Shown here: positions 2,522 through 42,674 of the stretch, piece after piece
How positions within the stretch are numbered: position 1 is the stretch's first letter
Layout: every line of letters starts with the position of its first letter
Source: Balanoglossus misakiensis
Lineage: Eukaryota > Animalia > Hemichordata
Assembly: GCA_040954595.2 (NCBI GenBank)
Contig: CM082584.2
Span: 5,274,110 to 5,338,109, forward strand
Length of the DNA: 64,000 nt
Direction: 5' to 3'
Position numbers and translations under genes: made by a program
Notes under the pieces: generated by a model
The model's database searches: none
Seen by the model: only the letters and a program-made list of their open reading frames with translations
What the model was told of the DNA's origin: nothing

Positions 2522-5150
2522 TGTTCTTTTATAATAAAAAAACAGAAATCATATTTATTATTGAACTTGGCACTATATGTCCAATGTATTAGGCTTACTA
2601 ATATGCTTGAATATTGTGTATATCCCTGTTGTTGTAAAATTATTGTGAATGAATGATATATATATTCACAGCTGGCATTAATTCAAACACGCACATTTTT
2701 CTATGTATCAAATTCATGTAAAATGATATGCATTAATTTCAAATACAGATGTGTTTAGAAATCTGTTGTGTGTCGTGGATAATAATGTTACCTTTTGCAA
2801 AGCCAATATTTTAAAGTGATGATTGAGGGTTCAACACTTGCATTGGTTGCTATTCTTGGCAAGAGTCCAAATGGCGACTATGTGACTGTTCCACGTGCAA
2901 AATCCTACCAGGCCACTGTTTATAGACTTTTGGTCCTGATGTTTTTTTCTATAATAGTATTCAAAAAACTTCTCAATTGATCAATTTGCAATCAATCAAC
3001 TTTATATTTGGTAAATTTATAAAAGCGAATGACTTTTTAAATATTCTGTATCTTTTTATATCAACATATCAGGCTTTTAAATTGAATAAAATGTTAAACT
3101 ATATAATCCTCTTGTCATACACCATGATAATCCAATCGATGCTTCAAACTCTGAACGGGTATTTCATGTATTCTGAAACTTTTTTTTTAAATTCGGTGCA
3201 TAATTTTGAGGACTTCAATAATTTTCTAGTAAAGCGTGATTTAAATTAGAGCTGTACACATTTGCATATCTGTGATCTCACTGGCCAAGAGCACGAACAT
3301 TACATCTGATCAATTTGGGAGGGCCATGTGTGTTCTTTCTGTTTAAGAGGAGCCAACGAAAACTTTACATTTCTGATAAAATGGGCAACCATTTCCAAAC
3401 AAATTATCTGGTCTCAGCTGAAACACAAATTATACACTTACGAAGCACCTGATAGAAGCATGGGGCCTGTCAAAAATTAATGTAGCCATATTTGTATTCG
3501 TGTAATTATGTAGACATGGCACAGTAAATGAAATTCTGACAGTTCCTACGCGATCAAACATCAAATTATGCATTTCAAATCATTTTAAATTGCCATGTAA
3601 ATAAAATATAAAATTTGTTTCATACCTGAACATAAAGACAGCACTGGCGCAAACGTCTGCAGACAGAAAACACGTACACACAAAATATTCTATTTGTTCA
3701 TCCAATGCGATACAAAAGACTTGTGGAGTCACAGCTGCTGAACTGAAAATCTATTCCAATGACATATATGATGTTGTTTCACGACACGGAATGAGGATAA
3801 AACTCCAGACAAGCTGTGTATCGCGTTAAAATCAAGTCTTTTTAAGCGCTAGTGCGACAGCTGGTTTGTCGTATCACAGTAAATGTGGTATGTATTGTCG
3901 CAACCACTTAATCCAGATGGGACCAAATATTTTCATGAAAAAATAATGATTATGTTTCGGTCATTTAGTCAAGAATTCTATTTTTAATATTCATATCACT
4001 GTGATTCAGTATTAACTTTCACATAACAGTTGTGTGACATATAATCAAAGAACTGCAAGAATTATTTTGATATTATGCACTTGAGATTCTGGGCAAGTAA
4101 CAATATTTTCAATAGAGTCAACTTCATTGGTGGACATACATCACACTGTGTAAAACATCACCACACTTTCATATTTGCAATCATTATTCAGTATTAAATT
4201 GATCACAAAAATAGCAAGGGAGAAACCATTTGATATTAAGGGGAGTTGGATACATTGGGAAAAATAAAAGAACCCATCCAGTAAATCTTTCTTCAGCAAT
4301 GTTGTATCCCATCAGAATCTCTAACATCACTATATTCTCTCCAGGAATTGTGACATAGACACTTGACATTGATAGCAGCTTGTTTATTTTGAACACTGAA
4401 ATAAAATGCCCATCAGAGACACTGCACATCATCAGCTCTGTACAAGTCACAAATCATTGAATCTGTTGTCTTTAATTAAGGTAGCTGGTGAGGTTCACTT
4501 GGGTATTTCCCTTTGAAATTCTGAAGAAAAAAAATTTTTTTTTCTTCCAAAGTGTTCCTTTTGTCATGGTCTTTACAGGTGACCAATTGTCAATAATGCA
4601 AATGACGAAAACAAGTACCCGTCTTTGAAAACAAATTGTAAAAGGTTAAAGTAAGAGGGACACGTCTTTTTTATTTTATTTTCTCCTTTTAAAATGTTTC
4701 TTTGTCTTCTGAATCGTATAACTTTTGGTTATGGACATTTTGATTGATATAGGACTAAAATTAACAGAGCTTTCCACTGACATATAGGTTTTTGGTATAA
4801 ACACTTTATTTGGCCAAGAAGTTTGTGATTAAAACTTATCTTGTTTACACACCTATCACACAAAAATGTAAATAGTTACATCTGAGCTACATATTCACAC
4901 TGTATGGTTTTACAGGACACATCTAAATGTTTTCATGAACATGTGATGGACACTTTTTAGCATGGATCCAAATAAAAATCTGCAATGAATTGATCTCCTT
5001 TACAAATGGTGTCTGTGGCTATCCCATACAGGTGTTAACATGCAACTTATTTGATCACTTTTAAAACATACTTGATTTTCAAGTTAATATTTGTCACTCA
5101 GAAGACACGACACTGTTCACGATTCAGCAATGTGAACTCTATGACAAATA

Positions 5151-5326
5151 TACTGTAAAACAGGAAATTTTTGCGAACAATAAATTTTTGCGAACTACGC
5201 GCGAGCCCAAAAAGTCGCACAAAACGTTTTCGGAGATAATGATGCAGTGAAATCCGAGAATGAGAAAATTAATCGTAGCGTAACAGTTTCTGCTTTTGAT
5301 ATCGCAAAAATTTCCGGTTTTACAGA
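5151..5326 (+). mobile_element. MITE family A (TA-CTGTAAA...TTTACAG-TA ends), copy 1
   Basis: Terminal inverted repeats and a CpG-rich internal sequence (GCGAAAATT, GATGCAGT, TTTTGATATCGC) shared with six other copies in the window. Confidence 0.75.
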
Positions 5327-6201
5327 AGTTATATCTCACTCTTTCCAATTAATACATGATTTAATACTTTCACACATATATGCATGACTTGTATATGCGC
5401 TTAAAATCTTCGGCAAAAAGTACAAGCAAAAAACACAAAACAAAATAAAAGTTAAAGTATCCAAATAGATCTGTTAATGTGTGAATAAAATCAATCATGC
5501 AAAAAAATATAGACGCTGAAAAAAAATCTACAGCTCCAGAGGGCTCCCTATCCCTCTGAAAGTAAATATGTGTCAGTGTTGACCAAAACTGTTTATGTTG
5601 TGGGATTTTCAAACCTGATTGTTATGCACACATATATTCAAAACTGTAACCTTTGACAATACTTCATCATAATAGTGGTTTTTTATTTTCCTGGATATGT
5701 CTGATGGCTTACTTCCCTTAAACAGAGTCACGTATGTGCTGCCTGACATAGGTCCACTTTGTTGGTAGTAATTTTGGCTCTCTGGTTTAAAAGTCTTGCT
5801 TGGCTCTGTACAGCCCTCAAACCCCTTACCACTGAAAACAGTGGCTTTGGACTGAACCATGGTGGTGAAAGGGTTAATTAAGCCACACAGACTGCCCTGG
5901 ACTTTATATTATACCCTGTAATCAGTGATTTTTTTCTTGCGACAAAAAAGTTCAACAATGCCATAAATTCCATTAAAATGTTGGTCAAATCCTCAAAAAA
6001 TAAATTTCACATAAAATCCTTAAAATATTTGTAAATATTTGAAAATGCCAAAGATATCGTCAATATTTCATAATTTAACAGTTCAGCTTTACAATTTAAT
6101 AGTCATCATAATTACGGTACCATAATGAGTTACTGTTACCAGTAGTTTCACAGAAGTCATGAATTTAATGCCCTTTGTTACACTCCATGTTATCGCGTTG
6201 A

Positions 6202-7826: not shown

Positions 7827-10800
7827 TTAGAGTAACGTGCAAACTGTACATCTTGTGACGGCGACCTGTTCGACGCCATTTTGTGGCTGCCCGGGTTGCG
7901 ACGCCGACATCGTTCTGGTGTTATTTCTGGTGTTGGGAATTGACGGCGATGATTGGTAGACGGACGACTGAAGGCTGCTCACAATTTGTTGTGATTCTGT
8001 TTGTTGTGCCGGCGGTTGTTGCTGTTGTTGTTGTTGTTGTTGTGAGGACACCGGATCATTTGGTTGGCTTGGTAACACCTCCTTGGGAGATTTCGGTTGA
8101 ACGTAACGCGTAATTTGATCCATGATTTCTTTGTACTTAGCTACCAAGTCGGCATGGATACCACCACCACCATGCCCACCGATGCCTAGCAACAAAAGAA
8201 TAATGATCATCAGCTGTATATCTTGTCAACATTTTTGGGGCGAAAACACTAAAATGAAAACCTAAAAGGGTGATGATTGTCTTATGCCCATGTGCCAAAC
8301 CAGAGACTCTGGTTACAAAAATTGTATGCAGTGAATGCCAATGGAGTGTGCTGTCCTAACAACAGACAAGATGGCGACGACCATAGTCTGTGTCAGAGAT
8401 TGGAAGGTTTGTACACACAAAATTACACACCTGTGCATAAGATGATCGTCGGCCTTTAACACTAAAGAATGACTTGAAGCCATATATAACATATTTGGCA
8501 AGGTGGTTTTTAAATCAATGTAAAATAAACTCCCAAAATGGAGTCAAAGGCTTATATGTCACTGAGATTAGACCACAGTCAACTTTTATGCAGAATATAA
8601 ATATTCACTAGAATCTCAAATACGTTGAGGGCGCTATGTACCCTCCAGTTGTATCCAACATACATGAATGGCGAGAACTGTTCTCCAAAACATACACTCA
8701 CCTCTCATTTGTACATAGATGAGTTGTGAAAAGACTAGAGACATTCCTCCCGGCGGTGGCCACGTCACTTTCTGGAACATGACTGGAATTATTGGCTTCT
8801 TCAACAAATCAGCCAGACTGATTTCACGGTTACAATTGTGCGATACGATGTACTTGGGTGTTATACAAGCTATCACCACCTGAAAAAAAACACAACATCG
8901 ATGAAATATTTAAGCAGATTGATAGTTGATGTCACGATTCAAAGTAATGCAGAACTGAACTCACTTTGAAGCTATGCTACTTAATCATTTATCCAGGAAA
9001 AGGATTTACTATACTCTGGCTAGCTGAGCTAAACTCCGGCGAGACTGGGCCAGGGACCGGGATTGCATGTTTGTTTAGTGGGAATGCATGGGTGTGGTCA
9101 TCTGGCACAATGACTGTGTAATGCTGCAAAAGGTTATTTCCATGATACCAACGTAACTTAGTAATACTAGGATGTATACTGCACAATAGGCTGTGTTGAT
9201 TGGGTATTTCCAGGGGCTTTCGTGAATTATACAAGAAATTGCAGTTTGTTTGTAAATTTAATATATTCGAAAAATAGCCAAAACTTGCAGCTAATGGAGC
9301 TTTAAACAATACGCGGTATTGGGGATGAATAACAAGCTCTATTTTAGTGTAAATCTCACAGTACCTTGCAGTTTCTGAGTCCTTCATCAATTCTCTCATA
9401 AAGCGTATCTCCTCCACCCATTTGACCAATATCCATCCAACATTGGAATCCACTTTTCTCCAATCGATCTCGCAATCTCTTCACTTCATCCTGGATGCCC
9501 CAATTGTAACTGATAAACACCGATGGTGGTGCAACTGATGACTCTAAAATACACAAATAATAAAAGAAAAACATCCTTTATTACATGGTATAAACATGCA
9601 TGAAGATTTTCTCGGGGTATGTGGCTGACTGATTTGGGCACTGCATGCTTCTTTGGGGTGGGGTGAAATTACAGACCACAATGTGATTATAAATGCATTG
9701 GAATTTACTTAGATTAGGCAAAATAGCCTTTATGTGTGTAACGACCATTGTTATTATTGACAAATGAATTATAGTCCGGACTTGAATTAAAATTTTGCAC
9801 CATAACAGTGCAGACTATATACTCATAGGTAGTGTTAATAAGCTGGATACTGGGCATATCATCATGTTTCAGGAATTTGAACAAGAAACTGCAGTAGACA
9901 CCCAAAACAAAAATACTGAAAACGTAGCAAAAAATTACAGCTAATGAAGCTTTAACCTACCTTGTCCTTTGTGGATGATATCAATGACGTCTTCTCTGTG
10001 CATTTGTTCAAGACATGTCAACATCATTTCAATCGACAAAGTGGTATTGCCACTGCTGTAGATCCAGTCGGTAATCATTTCCAATGCGGGATTCACTTCA
10101 TCGGCAAACTTCTGGATCTTGGCCTTTTTGTAACCTGTAAAGACAAAAGGGTGGTTGTTGTTAAGGGAGATTGTCTTTGACACTGTGCTTGGACGTCATG
10201 GGACCACTACAGCCTACACATGGAATATTTTTCAAAAAAATGGAGTGAGGGCAAAACTATTAAGAGTGTACAGTTTATCATGATGTACATTACAATTATT
10301 ACATTTCTCAGCTGTTTTGTTATGCTACATTAAAATATTTATAAGGAAATGTGACAGTGTTGTTCATAAACAGACAAGTTGAACAGGAACTGAGCTGCCA
10401 ACAGTCTACCTCAAAAGTGGCGTTTACTAAACACCAACGCTAAACTACATGAGTGTCATGGCAACAATACAGGGAACTGGTTACCATAGCAACTATTAAG
10501 GTCACAGTGCGCTATAACAAGAACGAATAGTGAGTTGCTGGAGTAACAATGCATAATTTTGTATTATTTGCTAATATTTTTGACATTTAGCTTGGAAATG
10601 TCACCATGAGTCAAATACAAGCTATTGCATCTCAAGTATTTTCCTCAATTGAGCCAGCAAAATAATATTAGAAAATTATATATTTACAATATGCAAAACC
10701 CAAAATATTTGTGTGTTTCCATATTCTACTGATGATATTTATGTGAAAGGGTTAAGATCACCATTACCTAATTTTTCAGCCAACGCAAGCCAATCAGATC

Positions 10801-13800
10801 CTTCTGATCCTGCATTGAGTAACTTAGCAACACCTTTCATCCATGAAGGTAATTCTTCTTCTAACATTCGGATGTTACCGTCAAGGTGATGGTTGATTGG
10901 TGGAGGTGCAACAACTGTAACATGAAAATAAAACAATTGGTAATGAGTCACTTCCAGTTTAAAACACCATTGTACAGTCAAACCTGTGTTAGTGGTCACC
11001 TCCATATATAGGAAACCTGTCTGTAGTGGCCACTTAGTTAAGGTCCCTTTGCAATTTATATGTACATTAATTGACCTGTCTATAAAGGCCACCTGTCTAT
11101 AAAGACCAGTTTAGGAAAGTCCCTTGACTGGCCACTATAGACAGGTTTGACTGTACACACAAAAACCTGTGTATAAATAGGCCCATAGAAATATGTGAAT
11201 TCCAATGAACACACTGCCTATTTAATTACCCCCGGTATTTGTATCGCTGTCACAAAATTTGTCCTGCACCTATTATCCACAGAACACTGCTGTAGTCTGT
11301 GTGCGACATTTTATTCCAGACTCGGCCTATTGCGCAACACACATATAACAGAAATACAAATTGCCCTGAAGTATAATATGTACTCAAACTCACTCTGCGT
11401 TGCTTTGGATGGGAACCACTTTTTAAAACCAGCCGTCTTGATACGTCTGTGATCGCAGAGCACCATTTTGTTGTTCAAGCACTGATCCAGATTCAGGAAG
11501 TGGACGTCTTTCTTGGAACCGCACGGACATTGGACGGAGAATTCGTACTTGACACGTTTCATCCACATTGCACGCAGATCGGCCAGAGTGGAATCCAGGA
11601 AATGGCGGACCTGGGAAGTCGATGGACAGGAATTGTTAGATGTCATGTTATTGTTTCCTCATGTATTTCTTGGCTTGAATGCTGACAAAGACTTAGTGGT
11701 GATCTGCAGATCAGGTGTGTGATATGTTGGTGCCTTTACTATAATATGCATCTCAAGATTTGCACTAAGTGCTGTAAAAGTATTAACCAATCTGCCACCC
11801 ACCGCCCCTCCCTTGCTGACAAAGACGTAGAGGTGATCTATAATTCAGTTGTGTGATGTATTGGTGCCTTTATTCTTATCATTATGCATGGCGAGAAATT
11901 GCACTACCGGTATAATGCTGTAAAAGTAACCCAATCAACAAGACATTGAACTCAGGGTTGTTCAGTTAATTCAATCAACAAGACACTGCCACCCCCTGTC
12001 CCTCCCTGCTTCAAAGTGGAACACTCCACACTACCCTTCCTCCCCCATTCCTTCCTTTCCCCTAACACCCACATTTAAATTTCCACCCACTTCTGCATCG
12101 ACATACAATGATTACCTTGGCACAAGTATTGGGATTTGGTGGAAGGTCCTTGGTGTCTTCAGCCTCGTCATCTTCACCAATACATTCCACTCTCATCACA
12201 GTGACCTATAAGTCAAGGGATACATTCAGACTTGAGCATTTAACAGACATCTACACCTTCAAAGGTTTTGCTTGCTAGCAGAGGTAATTTTTGATACACC
12301 TTAAAATATTACCATTGCCCTTACTGCACTGCTATTGCTAGTGTACACTTGGCTGAATTGACTAAACATTCATGAAATGTCCGTGGGGTTCTGCTTGGAG
12401 ATGACACCATGACTTGGAAGGGTGCCCTCTTTACGAAAAAGGTGTATTACAAAGTCAGATTTCACATAAGTTCTTTCTACCACCATGCGACTATTTTGAA
12501 CTCAGGATCAAAATTTCTTCCAGCTGCAAAAGGTACAGAATATCTGAAAAATCTTGGTGATTACCTTAATCCGTGCAAATCTTGCTGGTCCCATTTCTAA
12601 TGCAAAGTCATGATCTTCATCGAGATAAAATCTTGCCATGCGATAGTACAATTTGGGTTCATGACCTCCCTGTTCTTGTGACCACCTGACAGCACGCGTC
12701 AATATTCGATGAAATAAACCATCTGCAAAAAATAACGTAGTTAAAAATCCCCTCCTGAATTTGCCAAAGAGTCATATATCTAAGTCTTTTCTTTCATTCC
12801 ACTGAAAAATAGTCATTTGTCAGAAAATAACAATGCTGCTACACACAAGGACATCACTCAAATATTTAACACTGAATATAACAATTTGAATGCCACATTT
12901 TTATCCTATCAAAATATAGTGCTAATATATTATATTAAAATCAGTATCATCAAGTGTTTGAGAATTTAAAACGACATAAAAAGTGCTACAACATACCAGG
13001 CAGGAAGCCACCAAAGGTGATATAGAAAACAACATCAACTTTATCTGTAATCAATTCCTCTTTGTTGGGAAGGTGTCGTAATCTGGACGGAACATAGTGA
13101 CTTTTCTCAAACTTCGAACTCTCTATGGAATTCAACTGTAAACAAAAACAATGCAGTGATAATTAAAAGTATACGATCAGAAATATAGAAATATAACGAC
13201 AGTTACCATGGCAAACTAAGATCTAGCCAATCAAAAATTTTCACACGAAAGAGCACCACCATATGTTCTTAAGAGCTGTCAGATACACGGTTTTTGCCAT
13301 TTATCGGACATATGTAAATTGGAGGTGACTATGTAACTATAATAGAATGACCAAACTGATGAGACAATTTCAATCTCTTCATCGTTTATTTTCAACAGAG
13401 ACGGACTAAAGACAATAATTATTTCTTCTGTTTCTTTACGGTACATTCCAGTTCAAATTCATGTGTCCAATCTGTGTCTGGCTCATAAACTACAATGTAT
13501 ATCCTGACTCCAACCACTTACATATTTAGGAGGCACTCTCTCACACAGTAAATCAAATTTCTCCATCAAACCAAGCAGGGTATTCTTCTGATCCATGACA
13601 TCTCTCCACATATGGTTAATCAGCCTGTCTTCTAAGATTCCTGCTTGGTCTAACTTTGCCCAGGAATCGATGAAAGTTGGCCACTGTAAGATTGACAAGA
13701 AAATATTCATGTAGTAGACGATACTTCAATTCTATATGAAGCTGTATCAGACTTGTTATTACTGATCACTCTGTGAAGTCTCATATAGGATAATTTGATC

Positions 13801-16800
13801 ATCTTGTTTGATTCTCACAGGATATCCTATATCGAATAGCAACTGTACACCAACAACAAAAGATGAAAATTATACCTTGTCTATCTTAGATTTAAACATG
13901 GTTCTTAAAGCCCCACAAGATGCCACTTTTATCATATTTTTAAGAGTAAAATACTTCAATCTTCTAATATCCTTATCTGATGTACAGCACCATTTTGAAC
14001 TTGTGAAGATTCTAATACACATACTAATGTGCACTCTTGCTATAGGATGCTGAATAAAGGGGTGTGGCACCTCTTCATTATTTAACTTGTTTTATATTAA
14101 CACACGTACAGCCACAATCTGAGGTTGAAAATATGTTTGTGTATACCCATCACGTGGCTCTATGCAAAAAGAAAATGGCAGCTATTGGGGCTTTAAACCT
14201 TATTCAGTGTAACAAAAAAGGGCAAACAGCTGAGAAATGACCCAAATTTCACTGCATTTCATCATTTGATTCCTCTACTATATTGCCTTTTACCAACACT
14301 GGTGATCCAATTCCTTCAACCACTCAGTCAATATAATGTCTTGTGACAATCATAATTCTCATTTCACTTCATCAATGTTTACTTGCATGACTGAAGTCAC
14401 TTACTTGCTTGTCAATGTCTTTGACAGTAATGACTCTCTTGAAGACATCAACCAACCACTGCGGTTTCAGAATGACAGTATTCTGCAAAGAGTCGTCTAC
14501 GGCTCCACTGCCACCATAGTAGACGATGACCCCGAGGTCATGGTAGAACTGTAACATGGTTATCAGGCCTTCTCTGCTCTTAATGCCCAGCTCTTTACCT
14601 AATTCTGTGATCTGCAGAAAGAACGCACACAAGATAACATGATTTTTGGGGAAATATAGCTTTCATGCACATGTATTTGCATTTCCTTCATCATGCATGT
14701 ACGTGTGCGTCACACACACAACCACACACACACACATGGTTCAGTCCTCAACATCTGAAAGAGGTGACACTTCCACATCAGCCAGAGATCAGCATGACTT
14801 TATCTCTGTACGAGTATTTATCAATCAGCATGCAAGACTCACGTCAACCTCACATTTATCAGTCATTTCACACTGATTTCCTTCTTACAAAAGTCTTGAA
14901 TGACAATACATGACGGTTTGCATTGTATACTAAAATTTGTTTACCAATATATCTGTATGTCTTCTCTGACACCAATACATGTACACACACTCACACTCAC
15001 TTTCACACTCACATTCATGTTCACATTAACACTCACACTGGCACTCCCATTCACACATACATAATTACATACCTGGTTCAGCGACAAGTAGAAGGTATTA
15101 TTTTCAATATATTCAGCTATTTTCTGTTCAAACTTCAACCACTTGATTGGCATCTGTTCTCCCATATAGGGCTCCCCACTGGCCACTTCTTCGATGTGTT
15201 TCCTCAATTTGCCCACCTGTCAAGACAGATACATTGAAAGCATGTTATACACTATAAACACTTTATTTTCGCGAGCAATAAATTTTCGCGAAATGCACGA
15301 GAGCCAAAATAGCATGAAAATAAAAAGTCGCGTAAATTGTTTTGAAGATAACGATGCAGTGAGTGAAATAAGAGAACGCGAAAATTAATACTCGCGAAAC
15401 AGTGGCCTCTCTCGATATCGCGAAAATTTCAACTCGCGAAAATAATGTGTTTTACAGTATATCACATGTGATAAGTGTAACTGTGGATGAAACATTGTAT
15501 CATTTGTTACCATGGAGATTATTTACAGCATTGTCTCAAAGAGTTCCAACTACAGTTCCACTGGAACCAGATCAAACAAACATTCCTCTGTCTACTCACC
15601 TCTGAATCTTCGCCATCCTCAATGTTATTCTCCACAGCATAGTAATGATTCACAACATGCATGCAGTATGGCTTTCCTTTCAAATTCTCACGGATTCTGT
15701 GGAATTTTTGCTCAATCTGAAAACAAACAAGTGTGACAAGTTAATTTAAAATATCTTACAAACCAACACAATACATAGGTAACTTTGTTTATGGTATTAA
15801 CGCAAACAAGAAATAAGCCTTTCAAAATTATAATCCACCAGTGTAGTCAATATAAAATGATTCAGAAAGATGTAATAACGCTGGTTTCAATAATTTATTT
15901 AGACAAAGATCAAAGTAAGACTTGAATGGAAAATGGACAGTGTGCGAAAAGTAATTCAAAAGACATGTGGAAGTATAGGTATGTATCAGTAATAACCAGA
16001 ATTCAGAAGTTTATCAAAAAGTTTATAAAATAAATTAAGGACAATTTTTGAAGGGACAAAGGATGAGTTGTCAAGAGACACCAACCTTCTGTTTTCGGAC
16101 TTTTTCATCTGGATCAACCGAGTTTTTGTGAGTTCCGACGATAAAGATTGGTGGTGATAAAGTCATATTGTCTGGACTGTTCCTCTGATTTGTTGCAGTA
16201 TGTGCATGAATTGAACTCATCCAAAAATCCATGAAGTCCAGATTTGTCAGTTCACTGTCTTCATATATCACCTGAAATCGAGGCACACCACAGAAACATG
16301 CTTGTATTATTGCAACGTTCCAATTCTGGCTGCCTGACATATGTTTTTATGTCGCACTAGGGGGTCAAATCACATTATAACAATTGCATTCTGGGTAAAA
16401 GGTCAACAACTGTAGTATTTGAAGGAATGATATGTTGACTGTATTTCATAAATCTCTTTGAGGCACACCACAGAAACATGCTTGTATTATTGCAACGTTC
16501 CAATTCTGGCTGCCTGACATATGTTTTTATGTCGCACTAGGGGGTCAAATCACATTATAACAATTGCATTCTGGGTAAAAGGTCAACAACTGTAGTATTT
16601 GAAGGAATGATATGTTGACTGTATTTCATAAATCTCTTTGATCAAAATTTGTCTTTGTAGTTAAACTCATTCAACTTTTTTTACATTTTGTTATTTTTTC
16701 TGTTACAAATTTCCAGAATTACTCAGTATCGTTTAAGATTATGAACGTCGTAAGGTATAGTCAAAATTGATCCTTGCTAGGATGAGAAAGCATTTTTGTT

Positions 16801-19800
16801 TGGCCTAACTCTTCTCTACACCATGATGTCATTTAGGATGGCCCAATCACAGATGTCCTTCCTTACCTGTCCATCACCAATCCTCACTTGTGTTCTAGCA
16901 GGCGCATCAAGGTCATGGGTCAGATTGAACACAATAGTATACACGGCTCTTGAAGTCAGAAATACCTGTCAAAATGGCAACAAACCAGATATATTTAGGA
17001 CATGCAACTTGACAACTAATGCTGTAGTCAATTCAAGTGTCTGATAAGCTCTATGTCACAGACAGCAGAGCCAAATACTGTAAACCGGGAAATTTTAGTG
17101 AACGATAAATTTCTGTGAACTTTGCATGGGCCAGATAAAAGCAAAAAAAAATAGTCGTATAGTTAAGACTTACTTGATGTGTTGTGTAATAAACTGCTTG
17201 ACCAGCAAAATCCCAAATATTCAGAACAATATTTTTCTTGGCCGACTCTTTGATATCAGATTCTTCAACGTCCGGATTTTCAGCCTTATTCAATAGTTGA
17301 GTGACAAGTTCAGCAATCTTCTCTGGCATATCTTTCAAGAGATCATTGTCGGCCAAATTCTCATCGTCTGCGTTATCTAGTCCATCTTCTGATTCTACTG
17401 ACTGTAAAATATATGAAATAAAACATTTATTAACTTTTGACAATTAATTGGCGACGATTGTCTTAAAATGCGCATGTGCCAAACCAAAGACTCTGGTTAC
17501 AAAAATTGTATACAGGCAATGCCATAAGGCAGTGTGTTGTCCTAACAACAGACAAAATGGCCGTGACCATGTTGGAGATCGGGGAAAGACAGCAAATTGG
17601 GTGAAAAGAAGGGACAAAACTAAAGTCTACTATAGCATACGATGCATATGAAATATGGAAGGAAGCAAAGGCCATCCACTATTTGAATTAATCGAATGCA
17701 AAATTTGCAGAACATTTGGTATGGATGTTATGTTTGTACACACAAAACTATGCAAATGGTTAATGTCAAGTTATTAGGTTAAAACTGAAGAGAAATTACT
17801 AATTACTCTACCAATGTCAATGTGTTTCTGTAATCAAAGACTTGGTCAAACTCAATCTTCATTACTCTTTTCATATTAAATAGCAATTTTGTATCCAGCG
17901 CTCACAAATAATTTGGTCTTTCAATTATATAATTACAATTAATGTTCTTTGTATTTTTCTTATGCCAGCTCTATTTTTGTAGTATCGCTTTGAGTGTGTG
18001 GTCACCCCACCTATAGGGTGACACAATATAGGGCAGGTGCAAAACTAGTATGTTATGTAAATTTGTCACACTGATTCAAAATACAATGTACATGCAGTAG
18101 CGCTCATTATTCAAATATACTGCAGAATTCTGAATACAAAAATGTAGTCTAGTTTTATTCAAAAGAAATCTACCCTTGAAATGTGTTCTTCATACAAGAT
18201 AATCAACTTGCATTGTGATTCTCTAAATATCTCAAATCTGCACCTGTGGCCCCAGCAGAAAATCTACACAAGAACTCTCTTTTAAAACCTGACCTATATT
18301 CATAAACTGCAAAACCAGCGACCTAGCAGTCGATACAGCTCCGCTAAGATATTTTGCATTATAAAGTAAACGAGATATCTGCTTTAGAAATCAATGGCAC
18401 ATTTTCTTGACAGCAGACAATTTGCTAAGCCGTAAAAATGATACATGTACACATAGGACTCAACCATCGGATAAAAGCTATAGCCTATTCAGTCCATAGA
18501 AGCTAAAAATATATAAAGCATTCACAATAAACACAGAACTTACCTGTGATTTGTTAGAATCAGTGTCTATCACTGCTTTCTTTTCCGTAACATTTTCAAA
18601 GTTTGATTTTTCCATTTTCTCATTAATTTCATCACTCTTTTCCTTTCCTTTCCTCTTCTTTTCAAGTAAATCTTGGACGATGTTATTGGCTATGGCTCGC
18701 ATGTACTCTTCCTCCAATCCTTCAGAGCCATCAAGGACACCCTTATTATGGATGCCCCCACTTTCCTCCCCCTCATCACTCTTATGAATCTGCCAGGCTT
18801 CAAACTTCTCAACGTTGATCTCACATGCTGCCATGGTATCTATGCCGTCTGTACTTTCTTCACGGGAATCATATCTGCAAGAAATGAATATTTTTTTTTC
18901 ACTTGTGCCACCAACTAAAAATTTGTGATTGGCAAAATTTGAATTTTCCATGGTAAAAGTTGCATGGGTGACTATGTACCTTTAAAGGTATACAGTCACC
19001 CCCAATTTACATATGCCCATATATGGCTGAAATGGAGATTTGAGCGTTCTAAAGAACATATGGTGGCCCCTTTTTTTTTCGTGTGTGCCACCCACTGAAA
19101 ATCTGTGATTGGCTAGATCTCAATTTGCCATGGTAACTATACTTAATTATCCATAGGTGACCATACACCTGTAAGAAACAGTCTTACTAGTTACCTTTGT
19201 CCTGTTAATGATTTCTTCAGACTAGTTTTACCAACTCTGTCTTGTCCGACCAGCATAAGTCTCGTGCGGAAGATTGGTTTGCTGCCTGATTTTGAGGCTT
19301 GCAAGAAAGCTTTCATGGACTCTGGTCCTCTGGCAAGAATCTCGGTGGGGGCCGCCTCTGTAAGAATTACAAATAATCAAATAAGACTAGGAGTATGAAA
19401 TTGTCTGGTGTTATTGCAATAGTACACGCACTCCAAGAGGTTCCAAATGGTAACAGCTAAAGTCTAAAGTCTATGGATGTCATTAAGAATGTTTGTGTTG
19501 AAAAATCTGTCCTTGTTACAAAAATGCCCTGATTAGGGAGATACCCATAAGAACAGGTTTACTGAATTCAGTTTTTCAACAATAACAATGCTGATTACGA
19601 GATTTTTTTATAAAGTGATTTACAGAGTACATGTAGAACAAGAAACCCAGATGACACCCAAAACAAAAAATATTCAGAAAATATCCCAAAGTTCGAGTTA
19701 CTGTACCTTTATTTTGTCGTGCATGTTTCACTTTATAATGTATGTTTATCTGACTTTGTTCCATCCAGGATGGCATCAATAGGGGGATATGTCCCTCTTT

Positions 19801-20468
19801 GCCAGAATATTTTGGGGTGATTCCAATCTGGCAAGGGGGGGGGGGGGATGTAATATCTCCAACATGTGAGCAACATCATTTTAAGGGGCGCTTGTCCCTC
19901 CTTCACTAATTGACATTCCAACATTTCAACAGGAGGTGACTCCCCCTGGGCCCTGTCTAGATGAAACACTAAATTCTCTACAGTACAAAATACACTTACC
20001 TGGATCAACAAATCTGACTTGTTTGGTCACCCCATAGACATCTATCAACGCCCACAAAGACTTCTCCTTGGACACGTCAACTTTGCTGGCATGAATGCCT
20101 TGATATTCATTATTGACGTAATAATGAACATCGCCATTTTCATCAACATTATACGTTAACCGGTTCCCCTTGGTGGCAAACTTCTCCGGAAGAGCTTTGG
20201 CCCAGAATCCAGGTTTGTTAGTAAGATCCGGGACGGCATATTTCGGCAAATCGCCAACTTCGTTCGGATCTACACTGGTGAATCCAAAGCGTATGGCTCC
20301 GCTCCACCCAGTCACATTGTCGGTGAATTCCAGGGAAATCCTGTCACCGACCGGAATGGGAACAGCGCTAAACGCGATGCCATTGCTGAAACTGTCCGTG
20401 CGAGTCGCAGTCAGCCGATCTGAGGAGAACTCTATCAGACTACCACATTTCTCATGGAAGTAAGTCAT
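7827..20468 (-). CDS. Roco-family protein NHR-Roc-COR-Death-TIR-CaaX, 19 coding exons, 1248 aa
   Basis: Exons (all GT-AG, phases consistent, 3747 nt in total): 20000-20468, 19195-19357, 18544-18874, 17174-17401, 16867-16965, 16086-16271, 15600-15716, 15073-15216, 14405-14611, 13522-13683, 12997-13135, 12565-12722, 12116-12205, 11394-11610, 10768-10914, 9961-10134, 9365-9543, 8702-8879, 7827-8185. Motifs: NHR (FHEKCG..GWSGAIRFG..WALIDVYG); P-loop GQDRVGKTS; STDGID; WDFAGQAVYYTTHQ; VGTHKN; COR (MPIKWLKFE, LQFYHDLGVI, ILKPQWL); Death domain (DWLALAEKLG); TIR (VFISYNW, CWMDIGQMGGG, SHNCNREI, IIPV); C-terminus CTLL*. Confidence 0.88.
8100..9543 (-). other. TIR (TIR_2-type) domain exons of the Roco gene
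   Basis: VFISYNW..VKRLRDRLEKSGFQCWMDIGQMGGGDTLYERIDEGLRNCKVVIACITPKYIVSHNCNREISLA..KPIIPVMF..WPP; the conserved Glu codon is at 8823-8825. Confidence 0.85.
9961..10914 (-). other. Death domain exons of the Roco gene
   Basis: VAKLLN..SDWLALAEKLGY..KIQKF..NPALEMITDW..SIEMMLTCLEQMHREDVIDII fits the six-helix death-domain pattern. Confidence 0.8.
10973..11155. mobile_element. Tc1/mariner (pogo/Tigger-like) MITE
   Basis: TA-CAGTCAAACCTGT...ACAGGTTTGACTG-TA with internal repeated CCACCTGTCTATAAAG; a fragment lies near 59044-59117. Confidence 0.8.
11681..11936. repeat. Diverged tandem duplication of about 135 bp
   Basis: GCTGACAAAGAC.TAG.GGTGATCT..TTGGTGCCTTTA..TTGCACTA..GCTGTAAAAGTA..CCAATC occurs twice. 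Confidence 0.7.
14983..15060 (+). repeat. Degenerate CA-rich (CACACT/CACATT)n repeat
   Basis: Hexamer-like CA-rich low-complexity run next to a Roco splice donor. Confidence 0.6.
15250..15459 (+). mobile_element. MITE family A, copy 2
   Basis: Same internal motifs; ends TTTTACAGTA. Confidence 0.75.
16280..16641. repeat. Exact 180-bp tandem duplication in a Roco intron
   Basis: 16280-16459 is identical to 16460-16639 by line-by-line comparison. Confidence 0.9.
17470..17760 (+). repeat. Interspersed repeat family B (also at about 8285-8455 and 30440-30690)
   Basis: Shared GTGCCAAACC..CTCTGGTTACAAAAATTGTA, GTCCTAACAACAGACAA.ATGGC and CCACTATTTGAAT. Confidence 0.7.
18890..19173. mobile_element. 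Two head-to-tail copies of a TTAA-flanked (Kolobok-like) MITE
   Basis: The junction GGTGACTATGTACCT-TTAA-AGGTATACAGTCACC is centred at 18981-18984. Internal GTGCCACC.ACT.AAAAT.TGTGATTGGC is duplicated (about 18905 and 19085). An inverted copy lies at about 13195-13340. Confidence 0.55.
19780..19970 (-). repeat. Interspersed repeat family C, hAT-like end (also at about 26968-27163)
   Basis: Both copies share GGGGGATATGTCCC..TTTGC.AGAATATT and end GTCTAGATGAAACACT. Confidence 0.6.
20000..20468 (-). other. Neuralized homology repeat (NHR) domain exon of the Roco gene
   Basis: FHEKCGSLIEFSSDRLTATR..FSNGIAFS..GWSGAIRFGFTSVDP..WAKALP..LWALIDVYG matches the NHR consensus. The whole domain sits in the first coding exon, which has an upstream acceptor at 20575, so a non-coding exon lies further up. 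Confidence 0.85.
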
Positions 20469-20911
20469 CGCGTATCATAGTTTATGTTCAACTTCCAAAG
20501 TAAAATCCATCTTCCCATTTACTTGGACGTATCACAACGGAATGTACAGGCTGAACTCGCAAATGTGTAACTTCCTGTAAATAGACAACAAAACAAACAA
20601 ATCAATTTGAAATGAAAATTGATTGTTTACCACACTTATTTGTAAACTTGTCTCACATTCTCAGTGGCCATTTCTATTAAAATGTTACCTATCAGAGAAG
20701 ATAACCAATATTTGTTCATCCACTTATTAACCCTGATTATCAGACACCAGTGCAAACACATGCATTAGAGCAGAGCATATGCGAACATGTACTGAATGTT
20801 ATTTTCAGATCGGTTAAATTATAACTAAAAAATATGTCCATGATATTCAGCAGTGTTCATTAGGCCAATAGATACAAAGGTCAGAGTTCACACTGCATCA
20901 GCTACAAGTAT

Positions 20912-21103
20912 AACTGTAAAACGGGAAGTCTGCGAACAATACATTTTTATGAACTTTGCAAAGGTCAAAAAATCGCAAAAACAAAAAGTTGTGTAAAATG
21001 TTTTTCAGATATAATGATGTAGTTTTTAAATACGAGAATGCAAAATTTAGTCGTCGCATAACAGTTGCCTCTTTTGATATCTGAAAATTTCCTGGTTTAC
21101 AGT
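20912..21103 (+). mobile_element. MITE family A, copy 3
   Basis: ACTGTAAAAC...GTTTACAGT with the shared internal sequence. Confidence 0.7.
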
Positions 21104-27279: not shown

Positions 27280-30200
27280 TTCTGAAATGAAATTGAAGAA
27301 TATCAGTGAGGCTTTGCATGGGTACACACTGGAAAACAAACCATTGACACAAACAATCTCTTCTTCGAGTTTTCACTCAACACAACAAGGTTGACAAAAC
27401 CCAAACATGGCTGAATTTTAAAATGTTACTCACAAGGTTTGGTGGCCTTGGAAACCAATGACGTCATTGCTACGCCAACTCTCCGTGCAGCATACAGCAT
27501 CTCATCAGTATCACCATGGTAACTTGCTGATGATGAATAATTAAAATCAGTATGAAGTGAGCAGTTTATCACTGAAATGAATCATGACCATATCTTCTTT
27601 TCTTATTAAAATATGGTGCAAGTTTAACAACCAATTTCCAAGTCATGTGACCGACAATTTACAAATGCAATTTACTGTTGCACCTTAAAAAATCAAAGAT
27701 TTCTGATGCAGAAATTTGGGCTGAAAAGGACTGTCTCCTTTACACTCCAGGCTTGCATTCATGCTTGCCAAATGTGTACATAAATCAAGTGTTGCAGCAA
27801 GGATAGGGATACTATTTTGGCTGACATTTTGCATATTTTGGGGACAGCATAAAGTGTGTGTGTGCACGTGTACATACACAAGTTCATGTACAATGTACAA
27901 CGTGACACATAAAAATTTTATGATTTGATATATTCAATAAATTTGATTCACTCACCATCAGATGTATTAACTGGGTATACGGCACTTAATCTGCGTAATA
28001 AATCATCTAATTCTGCTTCCTCTGACGGAAATGCCTTCGATACATTCGTTGATGGGAAATGGATTGTGCTTTGATTGACAAGATGTGGAGGGAGGAGTCT
28101 GCTGTCAGTTGTGTCTATGCCAGCTTCTGATTGGCTCAGCCTTTGCTGCTCTCTGCTGTCAGTCATTGCTATTCCTGATGATGATTGGCTTATGTATTGT
28201 TGAGAAGGCAACAACTTGGCTGGAGCTGATTGGTCCATCATATTTCGTGGGTCTGGGGCTGGTCTGGACGTTGGCACGTACATTGATGTTGCGTGGCTGG
28301 GATGTCTCTGTCCCTAAAAAATGCAATTGAAATAATTTAACTCTTTTAGGAGCATGGTTCAGTCAAAGCCCATTGTTTTTCAGACTAAAATTCAAATATC
28401 AACAAAAACATGGCACTTCACAAGCCTACATACTTTGTTGGGAAGCTCAATACTCGGCACTGTATAATCTATGCATGTTTTAAGTGAGTAGAACAAGAAA
28501 CAGTGGTTGTTGAATAGATAAAAATAGCGACATAATCATCACTGTCCTATTAATATTTTGGTTAGATCCACTTCTTTCTCGGATTATTGAAATTTTCACA
28601 GACTGCCTCTATACCAGAGTGTGTGTGCCATTCATACCAAATCCTTTCTGAAATAACCTTTTTGACATCAGTATATTGAAAAGTTCCTGTGGTGCCTAAG
28701 GGTCATTCTCAGATTGTCACAAAAGTTCAACTAACGAAATTCATTCGTTTAGATGGAGGGGGGTTTGATCTCAATTCGTTTAGTGAATTTCACTTATTTA
28801 GATGACAACAATTTTCCTTTTTATGTTTTTATGAAAGCAAAAACCAATACCAAAGAAACAAATTTCCTCTGTTGAACTATGTGACAATCTGAGATGGTCC
28901 CTAATAGAACCTAACACTCCCAAGTACCTTGGATCAGATTTCTCACACAAGCCCCAACATGTGTGAGACAAATTATCCCCAACTCGCGTGAGAAATCTGA
29001 TCCAAGGTCCTTGGAGTGCGAGATTCTATTTCTCACACGAACAAAGATTTGCTAAATGCGCTCAGAGACATTGATTCATTGACTGGGTAACGGTTGTCAG
29101 ACACATTGTAGTTTCTGTCCATGTGTTACACATTGCGCCATTGGATAACATTTCGTGCATGTTAATTAAAGAATGTTTATCATCCAATCAGCGATCATGT
29201 GATACAACACTTTCGAGTCTGCGAGAGTGTGGGATCGATTAATCACGCCCAGTGGCCAGGATTGTGAAGAAGAAAAATACTGCAAAAAGGGATATTTTCG
29301 TGACAGGAAATTTTTGCAATATCAAAAGAGGCAACTGTCACACGACAATTAATTTTCACGTTCTCATACGTCACTAACTGCATTGTTATCACCTAAAAAC
29401 GTTTTCACGCGACGTTTTATTTTTCACGTTTTTTTTACCTGCTCTTCAGAAGTTCGCAAAAATTTATTGTTCTCGAAAATTTCCCATTTTACAGTATGCA
29501 AGTCTTATATTATAATCTTGTTAGCATTTTACCTGAGTTAACAAGTATCTGAGTCGTTGCACAACTAATTCCAATTGCTTATTATGTTCCTGAAGAATTT
29601 CTTGTCTTGCTTTCATCTCTTCACGGTCTTCTTTCCAATGTTCCACATTTATTCGACTGGCTTCACTTTCTGAAACATCCGTTCTCTTCATGATTTCCAT
29701 CTCTTTCAATAAGTCCCTGCAACAAACAAACACTTTAATGCACCCTAGACTCTACACATTCAAAGTACTTTTCAGCTATCACTTTACTGTCATTTTCGTA
29801 TCATATACATGCACTTGTTTACAATCAAGTTTTTTACAAAAATTTTTTTTTTTTTTAAAACAGCATATCATATCGTAATATGATACCTTTTTGTACTCAG
29901 AAAAATATTCTTCTAGAATTTCTCAATACTATCTTAACGTACATTTTCCTTATTTCTTGATACATGTGTATGTGTATTGTAGACAGTTTTTGAGCACATC
30001 TTTCTGCTAAATTAGTCATCTTATGTTTCTGCAAGTTATCTTATTGAACCTGTCAAATGTAGCCTTGTTACATGTATCTCATTACACTTACAACTTCAGC
30101 TAGAAAAAATATTTGAAAAATGTTCCTCTGATTTTTCAGACTTTGAATTTTTTCCCTAATTATAAAATACCAAGCACCTTTAGCAGCAATGTGTACGTCC

Positions 30201-33200
30201 TTCCCCTGGCCTTACCTATTTTCTTGTTCTAGATGAGATATCAGTTCTTTCAATTCACGGATTTCATTGGCTGCGGCTATTGAACTTCTACTGGAATATG
30301 TCTTCCATGAATCTCTCAAAGAATTCTTCAGCAAGCTGCCATCAGTTTGTTGTGGTCTGTTCACTTTATGTGGTGCTGTCACTGCTTCTACCTCAGCCAA
30401 CCTACGTGTCACAGATCACAAAACAAAAACCCTTTATTAGGTGCCATAAGGCAGTGTACTGTCCTATTACAACAGACAAGATGGCGGCGACCATAGTTTG
30501 TGTCGGAGATCAGGAAAATACAAGCATATTGGGTGAAAAGACAAGACGAAACTAAAGTCTACTTATACGGTGCACATGAAAAATGGAAGGAAGTGAAAGA
30601 AGTCCACTATTTGAATGTGTCGAACGCAAAGTTTTTCAGAAAATTGGATTGAACATTATGTCTGTATACACGAAATTATGCACATGCGCATCTATGGCTC
30701 AACAGCTCAGACAACCTCTAGTGTTCAATTTTTAAGATTCAGCCAATTGCAAGAATAATACATACCTTCTAGAAAGCTTGCCAATCTTAAGATGCATCTC
30801 TGAATCCGATCTATTCAGGTCACTATAAAGCAAAATGAAAAGCAAATCTCTAAATCTGACATCTTAATAAAACTTTATGTCACATCATGGAATATTTTTC
30901 ACCAAGGTCATGGAATACAGCTGAATGGGTCTGGAATTGCATTGATATTCAGTGCCAGAAAAATGAATGGAGATTCCCAAGTAAAATTTGAAAGGGGACC
31001 ATCCACACCAATTTCACTGTGGAAGATTAAAAAATGACAGGACAGAATGTGATTTACTTACGTTTCATAGGAGCTGTCATAATCACTGGTCGGTGGTATC
31101 GGCAAATAATTGGGTTTAAACTTTCGTCTGTGTTTCTTACTGAATCTGTTACGGACGGTCTTGGCAAAGGCTTTGGCATCATCTGTGGTTGAAGCCTGGA
31201 AGAAGATAAAGATTCCAAGGTGTTAGTGACATAGTGCTAATGGACGGTGTGTTAAATTCTCACATTCCCAGCTGCTGGGGTGTGTGTGGCATCCCAAGTG
31301 TGGGATAAATCAATACCACACTCTCAGAAATTAAAAAACGTTATATGACATGCGTGCTGATTGGATAATAAACAATCCTTGCCTAAGCACATTTAAAATC
31401 TTATCCAATGGCGTAATGGGTAGCACATGGACAAGAACTGAGGTGCCAGACGACAGTCATGTAGTCAATAATTTACTGTTTGTTACGCACATTCAACAAA
31501 TTTTGGTGTAATGTAAAAAAAAAAAAAAATTCACACCAACAAATGTGGATGTAATATTTCACACTTGTTGGGGATATTTTGTCTAACGTATACATGTACA
31601 TCAAATGTACTTTATTTTAAAAGTGCAAACATATGAGGAACATCTCTAACAGCAATGCCAAAGATTGGTACAAGATCACACTACGGTATACTTACAGCCA
31701 CTACAAATTCCCGTACAGGATGTGTGTATTTGTGACTTTTGCTGGAACGGTTGGTGAAGAAACATTCCTGACACAAGTCAAAGTTGAAACATTTGAGGCA
31801 CTTGTATCTGAATCCTATCACAGGATACGCTTTGCAGATGTTACATTTCACTTCGTGTTTCACTGAAATTAAACGAAAAATGACGGTTATACACAGCACC
31901 GTTTGCAATGTTCATTTTGTCATGCCATACTTGTTGGAAAAACAAACTGGTTGTCACTGAACTACTACAGATATTACCACAGCTTCTTGCTTAGCTGTGA
32001 AGGACTTCATATCCTCAGATGTATTTATCAGTGGTTGCAAGTCATGATGGAACACATCTGAATTTCTCAGTGGAGGTGACATTTGACTTAGAATGTCGGA
32101 CATCACTTACTTGTTTCAGCAGTAGCGAGTCGATGCATCGTTGGAAACCAGACCAGCGTTTCGGGTTCGGCCATCAACCAATTCATGAGCCGATCTTCAG
32201 TCAATGCTGACCCCATACACTGGCAGTTGAAAATCATAACCAAACAGTAAGCTCTCAATATATTCATGATGATGAAACACACATATGACCACTTGGCAAT
32301 CATTTCAAATATCAAAAACCCATGACAAATCAATACTGGTGAATTAGTTATTGATATCACCTTGAAGTCCATAATTGTCAAATACTTCCACCAGCTGTGT
32401 TGACACAAATGAGGTTGCATGTACATCTCGAACCAAAAATCAAAATTTGTAAACTACAATGTGTACTTACAGTTTCAAACACATTATTCAAAGCATGGTT
32501 CACTTCAAAACCTTGAAAAGATGCACTTTCATAAACTGCATCCACAATCTGAAAAAGAGAGAGAGAAAACAAAAAAGTGTTGGACTTTATTTTTTTTAAA
32601 TATTTGACTACTATTAAAGTACTAGGTAAAAGTAGTGTGACCTTGAGATGGTTTCAAATAATAACTTCTAACAGCTTCCATTCAGAGTGGGGTAAATGTC
32701 CCTGAAGGGTCATTCGTATTGGTAGCTCAGCTTTCTCAAAACATTTTTTTTCACTTCAATTTGATATCATGAATCAAAGGTTGCATATTAAGTTACCAGC
32801 CAGACCAGCTCTGACCTGCGGTAGACTATCTAACAGCCCACGGTCGGCTACCAGGCTCTTTTAATACATGTTGCACACAGACGTGCCCTCAACCATTTAC
32901 TAGTAAATGAGACGCACCATACTTTACTGACTCGTAGGCAGAGCTTCACTCGGCCGTTGAGGGCGCACATTCAATCAAATGCTAAGTCTGCGTAGGCCGC
33001 AGTGAGAGAGTCTATGACCCGCTCGCGGTTGCTGGGTTTCACAGCTATGGCACTTGTCAGCAGTTTTAGATCTATTATGCAAGAACACTGCTCGCTTGAT
33101 TACACTACTATCCTTTACTGCCATTGATGAATGATATTTGTGCTGGTTTCAGTATTGTTGCATATTAAATATCATGGACAAGTTCATAAGAATAAGACAG

Positions 33201-42358: not shown

Positions 42359-42674
42359 TACTGTTAAACGGGTTATTTTCGCAATAGAAAATTTTCGCGA
42401 TATCAAAAGAGGCAACTGTTACGCGAGGATTAATTTTCGCGTTCTCTTATTTCATTTACTGCATCATTATCTCCGAAAAACATTTTATGTGACTTTTTTC
42501 GCGAGCAATACATTTTTCGAGAAATACGCGAGCGCCAAAAAGACGTGAAAATAAAAAGTCGCATTAAATGTGTTTTCAGAGATAAACGATGCAGTTAGTC
42601 AAATATGAGAACGCGAAAATTAATCCTCGCGTAACAGCCTCTGTTTATGTCATGAAAATACTTGTTTTATAGTA
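42359..42674. mobile_element. MITE family A, composite inverted copy 6
   Basis: A reverse-oriented half is joined to a forward-oriented half (TTACGCGAGGATTAATTTTCGCGTTCTC ... GAGAACGCGAAAATTAATCCTCGCGTAA). Confidence 0.7.

Follow-up and report, generated by a model that had tools for sequence, protein, structure and literature searches.

A Roco protein of a conserved, apparently single-copy family, with an enzyme-type TIR domain and a CaaX tail, in the hemichordate Balanoglossus misakiensis

Introduction

A stretch of 64,000 nucleotides on contig CM082584.2 of Balanoglossus misakiensis (hereafter the window) carries on its minus strand a gene whose product joins an NHR domain, a Roc-COR GTPase module, a Death domain, a TIR domain and a CaaX tail. 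What could such a protein be doing? Is the chain real, or have neighbouring genes been read as one? If real, is it an NLR-like immune or cell-death system gated by its GTPase, as the original prediction proposed, or is it an adaptor, a developmental regulator or an enzyme? Our analysis shows that the gene is a real, ancient and single-copy Roco variant, Roco by descent and by fold, and that SARM1, MyD88 and the NLRs are not its orthologues. Among its relatives, conservation is tightest in the TIR pocket and in the lipid tail, and not in the GTPase.

One gene and one chain

Joined by coordinate, the 19 exons between 20468 and 7827 give a 3747-nt frame encoding 1248 aa plus a stop and ending in CTLL (Table 1). 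The predicted frame has no internal stop, its introns are GT...AG in 18 of 18 cases, and 9 nt upstream of its ATG there is a stop in the same frame. Pfam searches of 15 single exon frames return the domains in the order Neuralized, Roc, COR-A, Death and TIR_2 (E-values of 1e-43, 2e-5, 5e-11, 7e-5 and 6e-12). The Ptychodera flava protein XP_070564331 aligns with the window (tblastn) in 19 collinear segments, one per exon, and in a global, end-to-end alignment it is identical to the window protein at 1041 of 1250 positions (83%). Saccoglossus kowalevskii NP_001161599, named 'neuralized PATS1', is 70% identical, and the alignment with each of these two hemichordate proteins is free of gaps at 17 of the 18 junctions. 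Splicing, domain order and orthologue collinearity thus bear out the gene model of the original prediction.

But do the domains belong together? A full-length search with the Ptychodera protein as query gave 141 matches, and among the 120 listed at least 48 have all five Pfam families on one protein, eight of them on Logan contigs only 4-6 kb long, a length consistent with spliced mRNA. Relatives with the five families on one protein support the single chain; together with the collinear orthologue alignment, they rule out an artefactual fusion of neighbouring genes. The predicted lack of a kinase, leucine-rich repeats (LRRs) and ankyrin repeats also holds, as Pfam found none of these families on the 83%-identical orthologue and no protein kinase domain on three orthologues, all at E<=0.01. 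The UniRef label 'serine/threonine kinase' on orthologues is wrong, since no kinase domain was found.

An acceptor-like site ahead of the candidate 5' untranslated part of exon 1 implies a probable upstream non-coding exon. Just upstream of the acceptor of exon 6, intron 5 holds a perfect 180-bp tandem duplication, which is either a recent event or an assembly artefact. Two dispersed families of short repeats, resembling miniature inverted-repeat transposable elements (MITE-like), have some of their copies inside introns of this Roco-TIR gene.

The TIR domain and the lipid tail

Which parts of the protein has evolution preserved? Conservation columns were taken from an alignment of 45 rows, and motif counts from 51 full-length members, with partial models left out. 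The TIR is the most conserved domain, with 31 invariant columns out of 142, compared with 10 of 200 in COR-B, 8 of 152 in the NHR, 6 of 89 in the Death domain and none in the Roc insertion described below or in the C-terminal linker. An SxxCxxExxxA motif with Glu at the catalytic position is present in 51/51 members, its register being set against the SARM1 catalytic helix via a HMMER alignment of a sister-family TIR, and the BB-loop motif is present in 47/51. This Glu sits in helix alphaC and is Glu1089 in the window protein; the enzyme-type TIR of the original prediction is thereby supported.

What kind of TIR is it? In the family profile (best 60 of 293 rows), the nearest solved TIRs are Cat1, AbTir and SARM1, and the nearest solved death domains are those of NRADD/p75NTR, then MyD88; these rows include no MyD88 or TLR TIR, and MyD88 is matched only via its death domain. 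SARM1 also comes first among TIR proteins by fold in an AlphaFold2 model of the Ptychodera orthologue (residues 1-1159, 78-row alignment, predicted local distance difference test score of 81.5, predicted template modelling score of 0.66), although by sequence the match to SARM1 is weak (E ~1e-4). No TIR of MyD88, MAL or a TLR appears among the listed fold or profile matches. The suggested 'MyD88 pairing' of Death and TIR is not borne out, as the TIR resembles SARM1 and bacterial nicotinamide adenine dinucleotide (NAD+) hydrolases (NADases).

The protein ends in a conserved CaaX box that follows an unconserved linker. The Cys at position -4 is found in 50/51 members, within a longer CxxCaaX pattern in 46/51, against 1/117 Neuralized matches and 0/50 other Roco matches, controls that rule out a chance CaaX. 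Among the 45 rows, the terminal residue is Leu in 43 and position -2 is I, L, V or M in all; the window protein has CTLL. A Cys at -4, an aliphatic residue at -2 and a terminal Leu are what geranylgeranyltransferase I prefers.

Is this cassette found elsewhere? A library-wide Death-TIR search (150 matches, only 20 of them given names) returned, besides the Roco-TIR family, mainly Death-TIR-TIR proteins with a CaaX end in 31/38; in the tail comparison made alongside Roco-TIR members and controls, the sister family had it in 27/31. The Death-TIR cassettes of the two families match with an HH probability of 100 and 41% identity. As it occurs in both the Roco-TIR and the ARM-repeat sister family, the Death-TIR-CaaX cassette has been placed behind at least two regulators.

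The sister family deserves a study of its own. It is a widespread invertebrate family of ARM-repeat, coiled-coil, Death-TIR-TIR-CaaX proteins. Most of its TIRs have a Glu, and genomes such as those of Mytilus, Ruditapes and Diadema contain several copies, some of them in tandem. Its layout is SARM1-like, with Death in place of SAM. A model of one sister protein comprises an entirely helical repeat region, one long helix, Death and two TIRs; it best matches SARM1, and also importin-type ARM repeats, with a root-mean-square deviation from SARM1 of ~30 A, high because domain positions differ, so the modelled likeness is a domain-wise one. These are probably the ARM-containing 'MyD88-like' proteins described in passages of PMC9334734. 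In one Ptychodera protein, XP_070543498, whose first TIR has Gln at its catalytic position, Death-TIR-TIR-CaaX is joined to LSM14/FDF/YjeF_N (EDC3-like) domains; this may be a gene-model fusion.

The Roc-COR module and the NHR domain

Roc is followed directly by COR (Pfam Roc and COR-A in order), the arrangement that marks the Roco family, and the orthologue model matches LRRK1, CtRoco and LRRK2 over Roc-COR with E-values of 2e-21 to 3e-18. COR-B gives weak Pfam matches in orthologues. The window protein has intact GxxxxGKT (G1) and WDxxG (G3) motifs, and the P-loop Lys and G3 Asp are present in 45/45 aligned rows. Between switch I and G3, Roc holds an insertion of ~150 aa in which two conserved helices flank an acidic disordered stretch, modelled in the orthologue as a long helix and disordered segments. 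Most non-hemichordate members have an extra Cys/His-rich insert at the COR-B end, absent from the hemichordate and amphioxus proteins, and the Cys/His cluster of exon 14 is a possible zinc site.

The NHR groups with NHR1 of the Neuralized E3 ligases to the exclusion of NHR2, with full support (100) in the Shimodaira-Hasegawa-like approximate likelihood ratio test (SH-aLRT). It superposes on Neuralized NHR1 at 1.2 A in the orthologue model and shares 64-83 identities with it over ~155 aa. Both glycines of its WxGxxRxG motif are invariant (45/45). Autoinhibition through an internal NxxN motif was considered and rejected, as no such motif is conserved (19/45 at best).

Distribution and descent

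How old is the family, and how many copies does a genome hold? Named members come from nine phyla: hemichordates, echinoderms, amphioxus, molluscs, annelids, nemerteans, arthropods (centipede, millipede, barnacle, spiders, ticks, mites and horseshoe crab), a flatworm and rotifers. Among the matches listed there is one locus per named species, repeats being isoforms or alternative models. The named matches of word-indexed searches (120 and 110 listed, with many rows unnamed) include no vertebrate, tunicate, insect or nematode, and loss of the family in these groups is likely.

A quick Roc-COR tree of 59 rows, with SH-aLRT support only, follows the species tree. In it, 13 Roco proteins of echinoderms, which carry added domains of other kinds (extra Death, Macro, Schlafen AlbA, ankyrin), share a branch with the echinoderm orthologues at a support of 94, below the starred level of this tree, which suggests that the window gene's family seeded a lineage-specific expansion in echinoderms. 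The G4 position in these paralogues is mostly Glu, Gln, Ala or Asn. In the tree built from the TIR alone (126 columns) 34/63 forks are open, and it gives no order of domain swaps.

Known systems and prior literature

The original prediction knew of no characterised protein with the full architecture, and here the answer is divided. No functional study, characterised orthologue or mention of a prenyl tail was found in the literature, with subscription journals largely outside coverage; the architecture itself, however, is not new to print. The domain string is in a 2016 supplement for centipede and oyster (PMC5094078, text and Table S10, as far as these were accessible). The Saccoglossus 'neuralized PATS1' and the orthologues listed in 2016 have the same domain order and no essential difference, having been named or listed only. 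The available passages of these earlier listings do not mention the CaaX tail, the catalytic Glu, the G4 change or the breadth, nor is there any passage on an NHR-Roc-COR-Death-TIR architecture in the accessible parts of PMC4729200, PMC11463336, PMC7075850 and PMC11378527. In excerpts of PMC9334734 a Roco-containing protein of Aplysia is filed as MyD88-like, a 'novel GTPase TLR signalling cascade' is suggested and the NHR is named in a figure legend; conserved invertebrate TIR families are cited in part of PMC6321704. Against the accessible literature, what is new here is the breadth, the enzyme-type TIR, the lipid anchor, the relaxed G4 and the sister cassette. Reportedly, Gerdol et al. defined 'ecTIR-DC' families in 2017, and the Roco-TIR family may already be numbered among them.

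Where does the protein stand among known systems? The cnidarian 'Novel Gene 3' (kinase-SH3-Roc-COR-Death-TIR; PMC5094078) shares the core, with 31% identity over 81-83% of the query and the Glu kept, but has kinase-SH3 instead of the NHR, a canonical G4 Asp and no CaaX tail. Since the cnidarian N-terminal domain differs, the NHR would have arrived with bilaterians. SARM1/TIR-1 (ARM-SAM-SAM-TIR), typically one per genome according to passages of PMC7075850, likewise combines a regulatory N-terminus, an oligomerising helical domain and, at the C-terminus, a TIR with the catalytic Glu. The same source defines TIR group 24 (SARM1) by ARM and/or SAM and an E(R/K)LEAG-type BB loop; the window protein has no ARM or SAM, a BB loop of WMDIGQMGGGD type, no Trp four positions before the Glu, and a predicted C-terminal lipid anchor. 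Like MyD88 it has Death followed by TIR, with death domain similarity at 2e-5, but the TIR is of the TIR_2/NADase type, the NHR-Roc-COR N-terminus is large and a prenyl tail is predicted. Group 23 (MyD88) is given in PMC7075850, as excerpted, an N-terminal Death and an RDVLPG-type box 2, and box 2 here is not of that type.

With LRRK1/LRRK2, DAPK1, MFHAS1 and CtRoco the protein shares the Roc-COR tandem by sequence and fold, and in DAPK1 too a death domain comes after COR (PMC6337361, legend). It differs from them in lacking kinase, LRR and ankyrin, in the ~150-aa Roc insertion and relaxed G4, and in the added TIR and CaaX. The ARM-coiled coil-Death-TIR-TIR-CaaX proteins have the closest Death-TIR cassette and the same tail, but in them ARM repeats take the place of NHR-Roc-COR, there are two TIRs, and a genome contains several copies. 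Compared with NLR/STAND proteins, the nucleoside triphosphatase is Roc, not NACHT or NB-ARC, and there is no LRR, TPR or WD sensor; compared with Neuralized E3 ligases, which have two NHRs and a C-terminal RING, there is one NHR1-type domain and no RING.

How might the protein work?

While the gene, its domain order, fold, residue conservation and distribution are established, every functional step that follows is inferred. Our favoured reading, to which we give slightly less than an even chance, is that of a prenylated NAD+ hydrolase that resembles SARM1, is controlled by NHR/Roc-COR and normally stays silent; clustering of its TIRs is predicted to set it off. The terminal CaaL Cys would be geranylgeranylated and tether the TIR end to the inner face of the membrane through a long flexible linker, with the Cys three residues upstream probably acylated. 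The NHR1-type domain would bind a short peptide of a conserved host partner, the input probably being a self signal or a guarded host protein, not a variable pathogen pattern. The abstract of PMC5714945 describes CtRoco as a monomer when GTP is bound and as a dimer with GDP or no nucleotide; Roc-COR self-association may shift with nucleotide load in the same way, so that output is tuned, not strictly gated. The Death domain might take the role that SAM has in SARM1 and nucleate assembly. TIR active sites form between two TIRs (bioRxiv 2022.05.07.491051, in part), and the assembled TIRs could cleave NAD+ with Glu1089. The product would be mainly linear ADP-ribose (ADPR), because the aromatic residue four positions before the Glu is missing, and non-aromatic residues there go with non-cyclic products in the same partly available source. 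Local NAD+ loss or an ADPR signal might then lead to a stress, defence or death response.

Several observations weigh against this hydrolase. The Trp of WxxxE that is linked to ADPR cyclisation is lacking: four positions before the Glu, the 51 members have, among others, His (16), Leu (14), Asn (6), Ser (5) or Tyr (2) and never Trp, and the window protein has Asn1085 at the position of the aromatic residue in cyclising TIRs. Loss of this Trp lowered the activity of AbTir and abolished that of L6 and ROQ1 (bioRxiv 2022.05.07.491051, as far as available). Can the Glu alone be trusted? Non-TLR animal TIRs bearing it can be active, but in an E. coli screen that took in 154 TIRs only 12/61 Glu-bearing animal TIRs were, and TLR2, IL-1R9 and IL-1R10 have the Glu and no activity (bioRxiv 2026.04.20.719644, in the text available); the Glu alone does not prove activity. 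No activity, localisation or phenotype of any member was found in the searchable literature. The GTPase raises further doubts. G1 is intact in 47/51 members (46 by windowed search and one recovered) and broken in 4/51, G3 is intact in 48/51, and the G4 position is Asn in 27, Asp in 12, another residue in 8 and unmatched in 4, with the canonical Asp present in both cnidarian relatives. Loss of the G4 Asp touches nucleotide specificity, not descent. In Argiope (spider), Chamberlinius (millipede) and Seison, G1 and G3 have decayed while the Glu and the CaaX are intact. GTPase gating thus appears not to be obligatory, because the G4 Asp is mostly lost and G1/G3 have decayed where the Glu and CaaX persist, and this weakens the 'GTPase-gated' claim of the original prediction. 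In some lineages the GTPase appears dispensable, and with a relaxed G4 and a broken G1 the nucleotide step is uncertain.

Could the TIR be silent and the protein a scaffold? A non-catalytic, membrane-anchored scaffold would recruit IRAK-like kinases or death-domain adaptors through Death and TIR, possibly the ARM-Death-TIR-TIR-CaaX sister proteins, to promote or restrain NF-kB or apoptosis, and Roc-COR would control its assembly. We consider this unlikely, though it accounts for much: Death then TIR is the MyD88 layout under which the Aplysia protein was filed, the death domain matches p75NTR/NRADD and MyD88, the Trp is missing and most tested Glu-bearing animal TIRs are silent. It sits badly with the absence of MyD88, MAL and TLR TIRs from the listed matches, and with pocket residues (box 1 Phe/Ser/Tyr, the BB-loop motif and the Glu) that are held more tightly than the Death domain. 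An NLR-like pathogen receptor seems improbable; its NHR would sense a microbial peptide, GTP turnover in Roc-COR would be indispensable for switching, and immunity or cell death would be carried out by Death-TIR. Bacteria do have LRR-Roc-COR proteins with variable C-terminal effectors, TIR among them, and SPRY/NHR-fold domains serve as immune sensors (PMC8195603, passages); in echinoderms, Roc-COR paralogues bearing a variety of added domains branch from this gene, and a clam transcript labelled 'neuralized pats1', by label only and of unconfirmed orthology, is ~760-fold down in parasite nodules (PMC4769524, in part). Single-copy conservation nonetheless disfavours the receptor: a tree that follows the species, with a single locus in each named one, is unlike expanding receptor families, and the 'NLR-like sensor' of the original prediction loses support with it. 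The Roco-TIR family is also more conserved than its tandemly copied sister in 4/4 species pairs (46-52% against 35-42%), the NHR retains its identities to Neuralized NHR1, and an obligatory switch fits poorly with the lineages whose GTPase motifs have decayed.

What, then, does the NHR bind? NHR1 is the binding domain of Neuralized. A Notch-linked developmental or neuronal regulator would use it at the membrane to bind NxxN of Delta/Serrate tails or Bearded-like proteins and couple this to a Roc-COR/Death-TIR output, for example cell pruning or neurite degeneration. This we regard as very doubtful, even with the NHR1 grouping and superposition, the invariant glycines and the apparent arrival of the NHR with bilaterians in its favour. 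Neur docks on the NxxN motif of Delta (passages of PMC10741450), and Neur G167E is a loss-of-function allele (PMC4059942, in part), presumably at one or the other glycine of WxGxxRxG. On the other side, ligand binding by this NHR is hypothetical, there is no RING domain, no conserved internal NxxN occurs, and no named match comes from flies, nematodes or vertebrates, the groups in which Notch is most conserved and most studied. The hydrolase and the Notch-ligand ideas can be joined in a bolder and decidedly improbable proposal, namely that the bilaterian ancestor had a second death enzyme like SARM1, built independently of it and prenylated, in which NHR1 reads Notch-ligand-type tails and a relaxed-specificity, LRRK2-like GTPase unleashes a Death-nucleated TIR NADase. 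It would have been missed as flies, nematodes and vertebrates appear to have lost the family.

Other features of the window

The single-exon open reading frame near the start of the window has no Pfam match; its Atlas neighbours are eukaryotic SGNH-hydrolase-type clusters (0.94-0.95). By eye, we take the BTB-BACK-Kelch gene to be KEAP1-like. The exon-like open frames of further genes have no Pfam match.

Table 1 Coordinates of the Roco-TIR gene and of other features in the window
Feature	Position	Strand	Remarks
Exon 1, aa 1-156	20000..20468	-	NHR, Neuralized NHR1 type; ATG 20468-20466; Pfam PF07177 1.2e-43; PDB 2yue/4kg0 2e-38
Exon 2, aa 157-210	19195..19357	-	Roc start, P-loop G1; Lys200 codon 19229-19227
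Exon 3, aa 211-321	18544..18874	-	switch I region and first half of helical/acidic Roc insertion
Exon 4, aa 322-397	17174..17401	-	end of insertion; G3 motif (Asp385, Gly388); Pfam Roc 2.3e-5
Exon 5, aa 398-430	16867..16965	-	Roc core
Exon 6, aa 431-492	16086..16271	-	Roc G4; Asn480 (codon 16124-16122) at usual Asp position
Exon 7, aa 493-531	15600..15716	-	Roc, likely G5 region
Exon 8, aa 532-579	15073..15216	-	Roc end, COR-A start
Exon 9, aa 580-648	14405..14611	-	COR-A; Pfam PF16095 4.5e-11
Exon 10, aa 649-702	13522..13683	-	COR-A end; Pfam PF16095 0.003
Exon 11, aa 703-748	12997..13135	-	COR-A/COR-B junction
Exon 12, aa 749-801	12565..12722	-	COR-B; model aligned over Roc-COR of LRRK1, CtRoco, LRRK2
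Exon 13, aa 802-831	12116..12205	-	COR-B
Exon 14, aa 832-903	11394..11610	-	COR-B end with conserved Cys/His cluster (family alignment)
Exon 15, aa 904-952	10768..10914	-	linker and first half of Death domain
Exon 16, aa 953-1010	9961..10134	-	second half of Death domain; Pfam PF00531 6.9e-5
Exon 17, aa 1011-1070	9365..9543	-	TIR first half, box 1 and BB loop; Pfam PF13676 6.4e-12
Exon 18, aa 1071-1129	8702..8879	-	TIR second half; catalytic-position Glu1089 (codon 8825-8823); Asn1085
Exon 19 coding part, aa 1130-1248	7827..8185	-	last TIR helix, unconserved Q/S/P-rich linker, CxxCaaL tail 7850-7830
Stop codon	7829-7827	-	end of exon 19 coding part
Candidate 5' untranslated part of exon 1	20469..20574	-	acceptor-like site before it (sequence reading)
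Roc insertion, ~150 aa	17174-18874	-	exons 3-4
Perfect 180-bp tandem duplication	16280-16639		intron 5
Dispersed repeat family one (MITE-like)	5142-5347, 15256-15463, 20917-21090, 33823-34025, 42356-42663, 50550-50771
Dispersed repeat family two (MITE-like)	8284-8400, 17468-17758, 30469-30686
Single-exon open reading frame, 594 aa	764-2548	-	N-terminal hydrophobic segment
BTB-BACK-Kelch gene	46243-51239	+
Exon-like open frames of further genes	27948-28313, 36479-36808, 59095-59499, 61593-62042	-

Implications

Why would this matter? If the hydrolase reading is right, the family is a conserved, kinase-free animal Roco with a simple metabolic read-out, NAD+ loss. The control of an output domain by the nucleotide state of Roc-COR, long debated, would become directly testable, which bears on LRRK2. 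Members occur in tractable animals (sea urchin, amphioxus, oyster, Macrostomum and spiders), and the naturally GTPase-decayed versions and the ARM-repeat sister family would act as built-in controls. There would also be an ancient class of membrane-anchored TIR NADases beside SARM1. Were the bolder proposal of a second SARM1-like death enzyme true, the protein would become the first Roco in animals with NAD+ cleavage, and not phosphorylation, as its demonstrated output, and animal NADases anchored to membranes would form a whole class defined by the Death-TIR-CaaX cassette.

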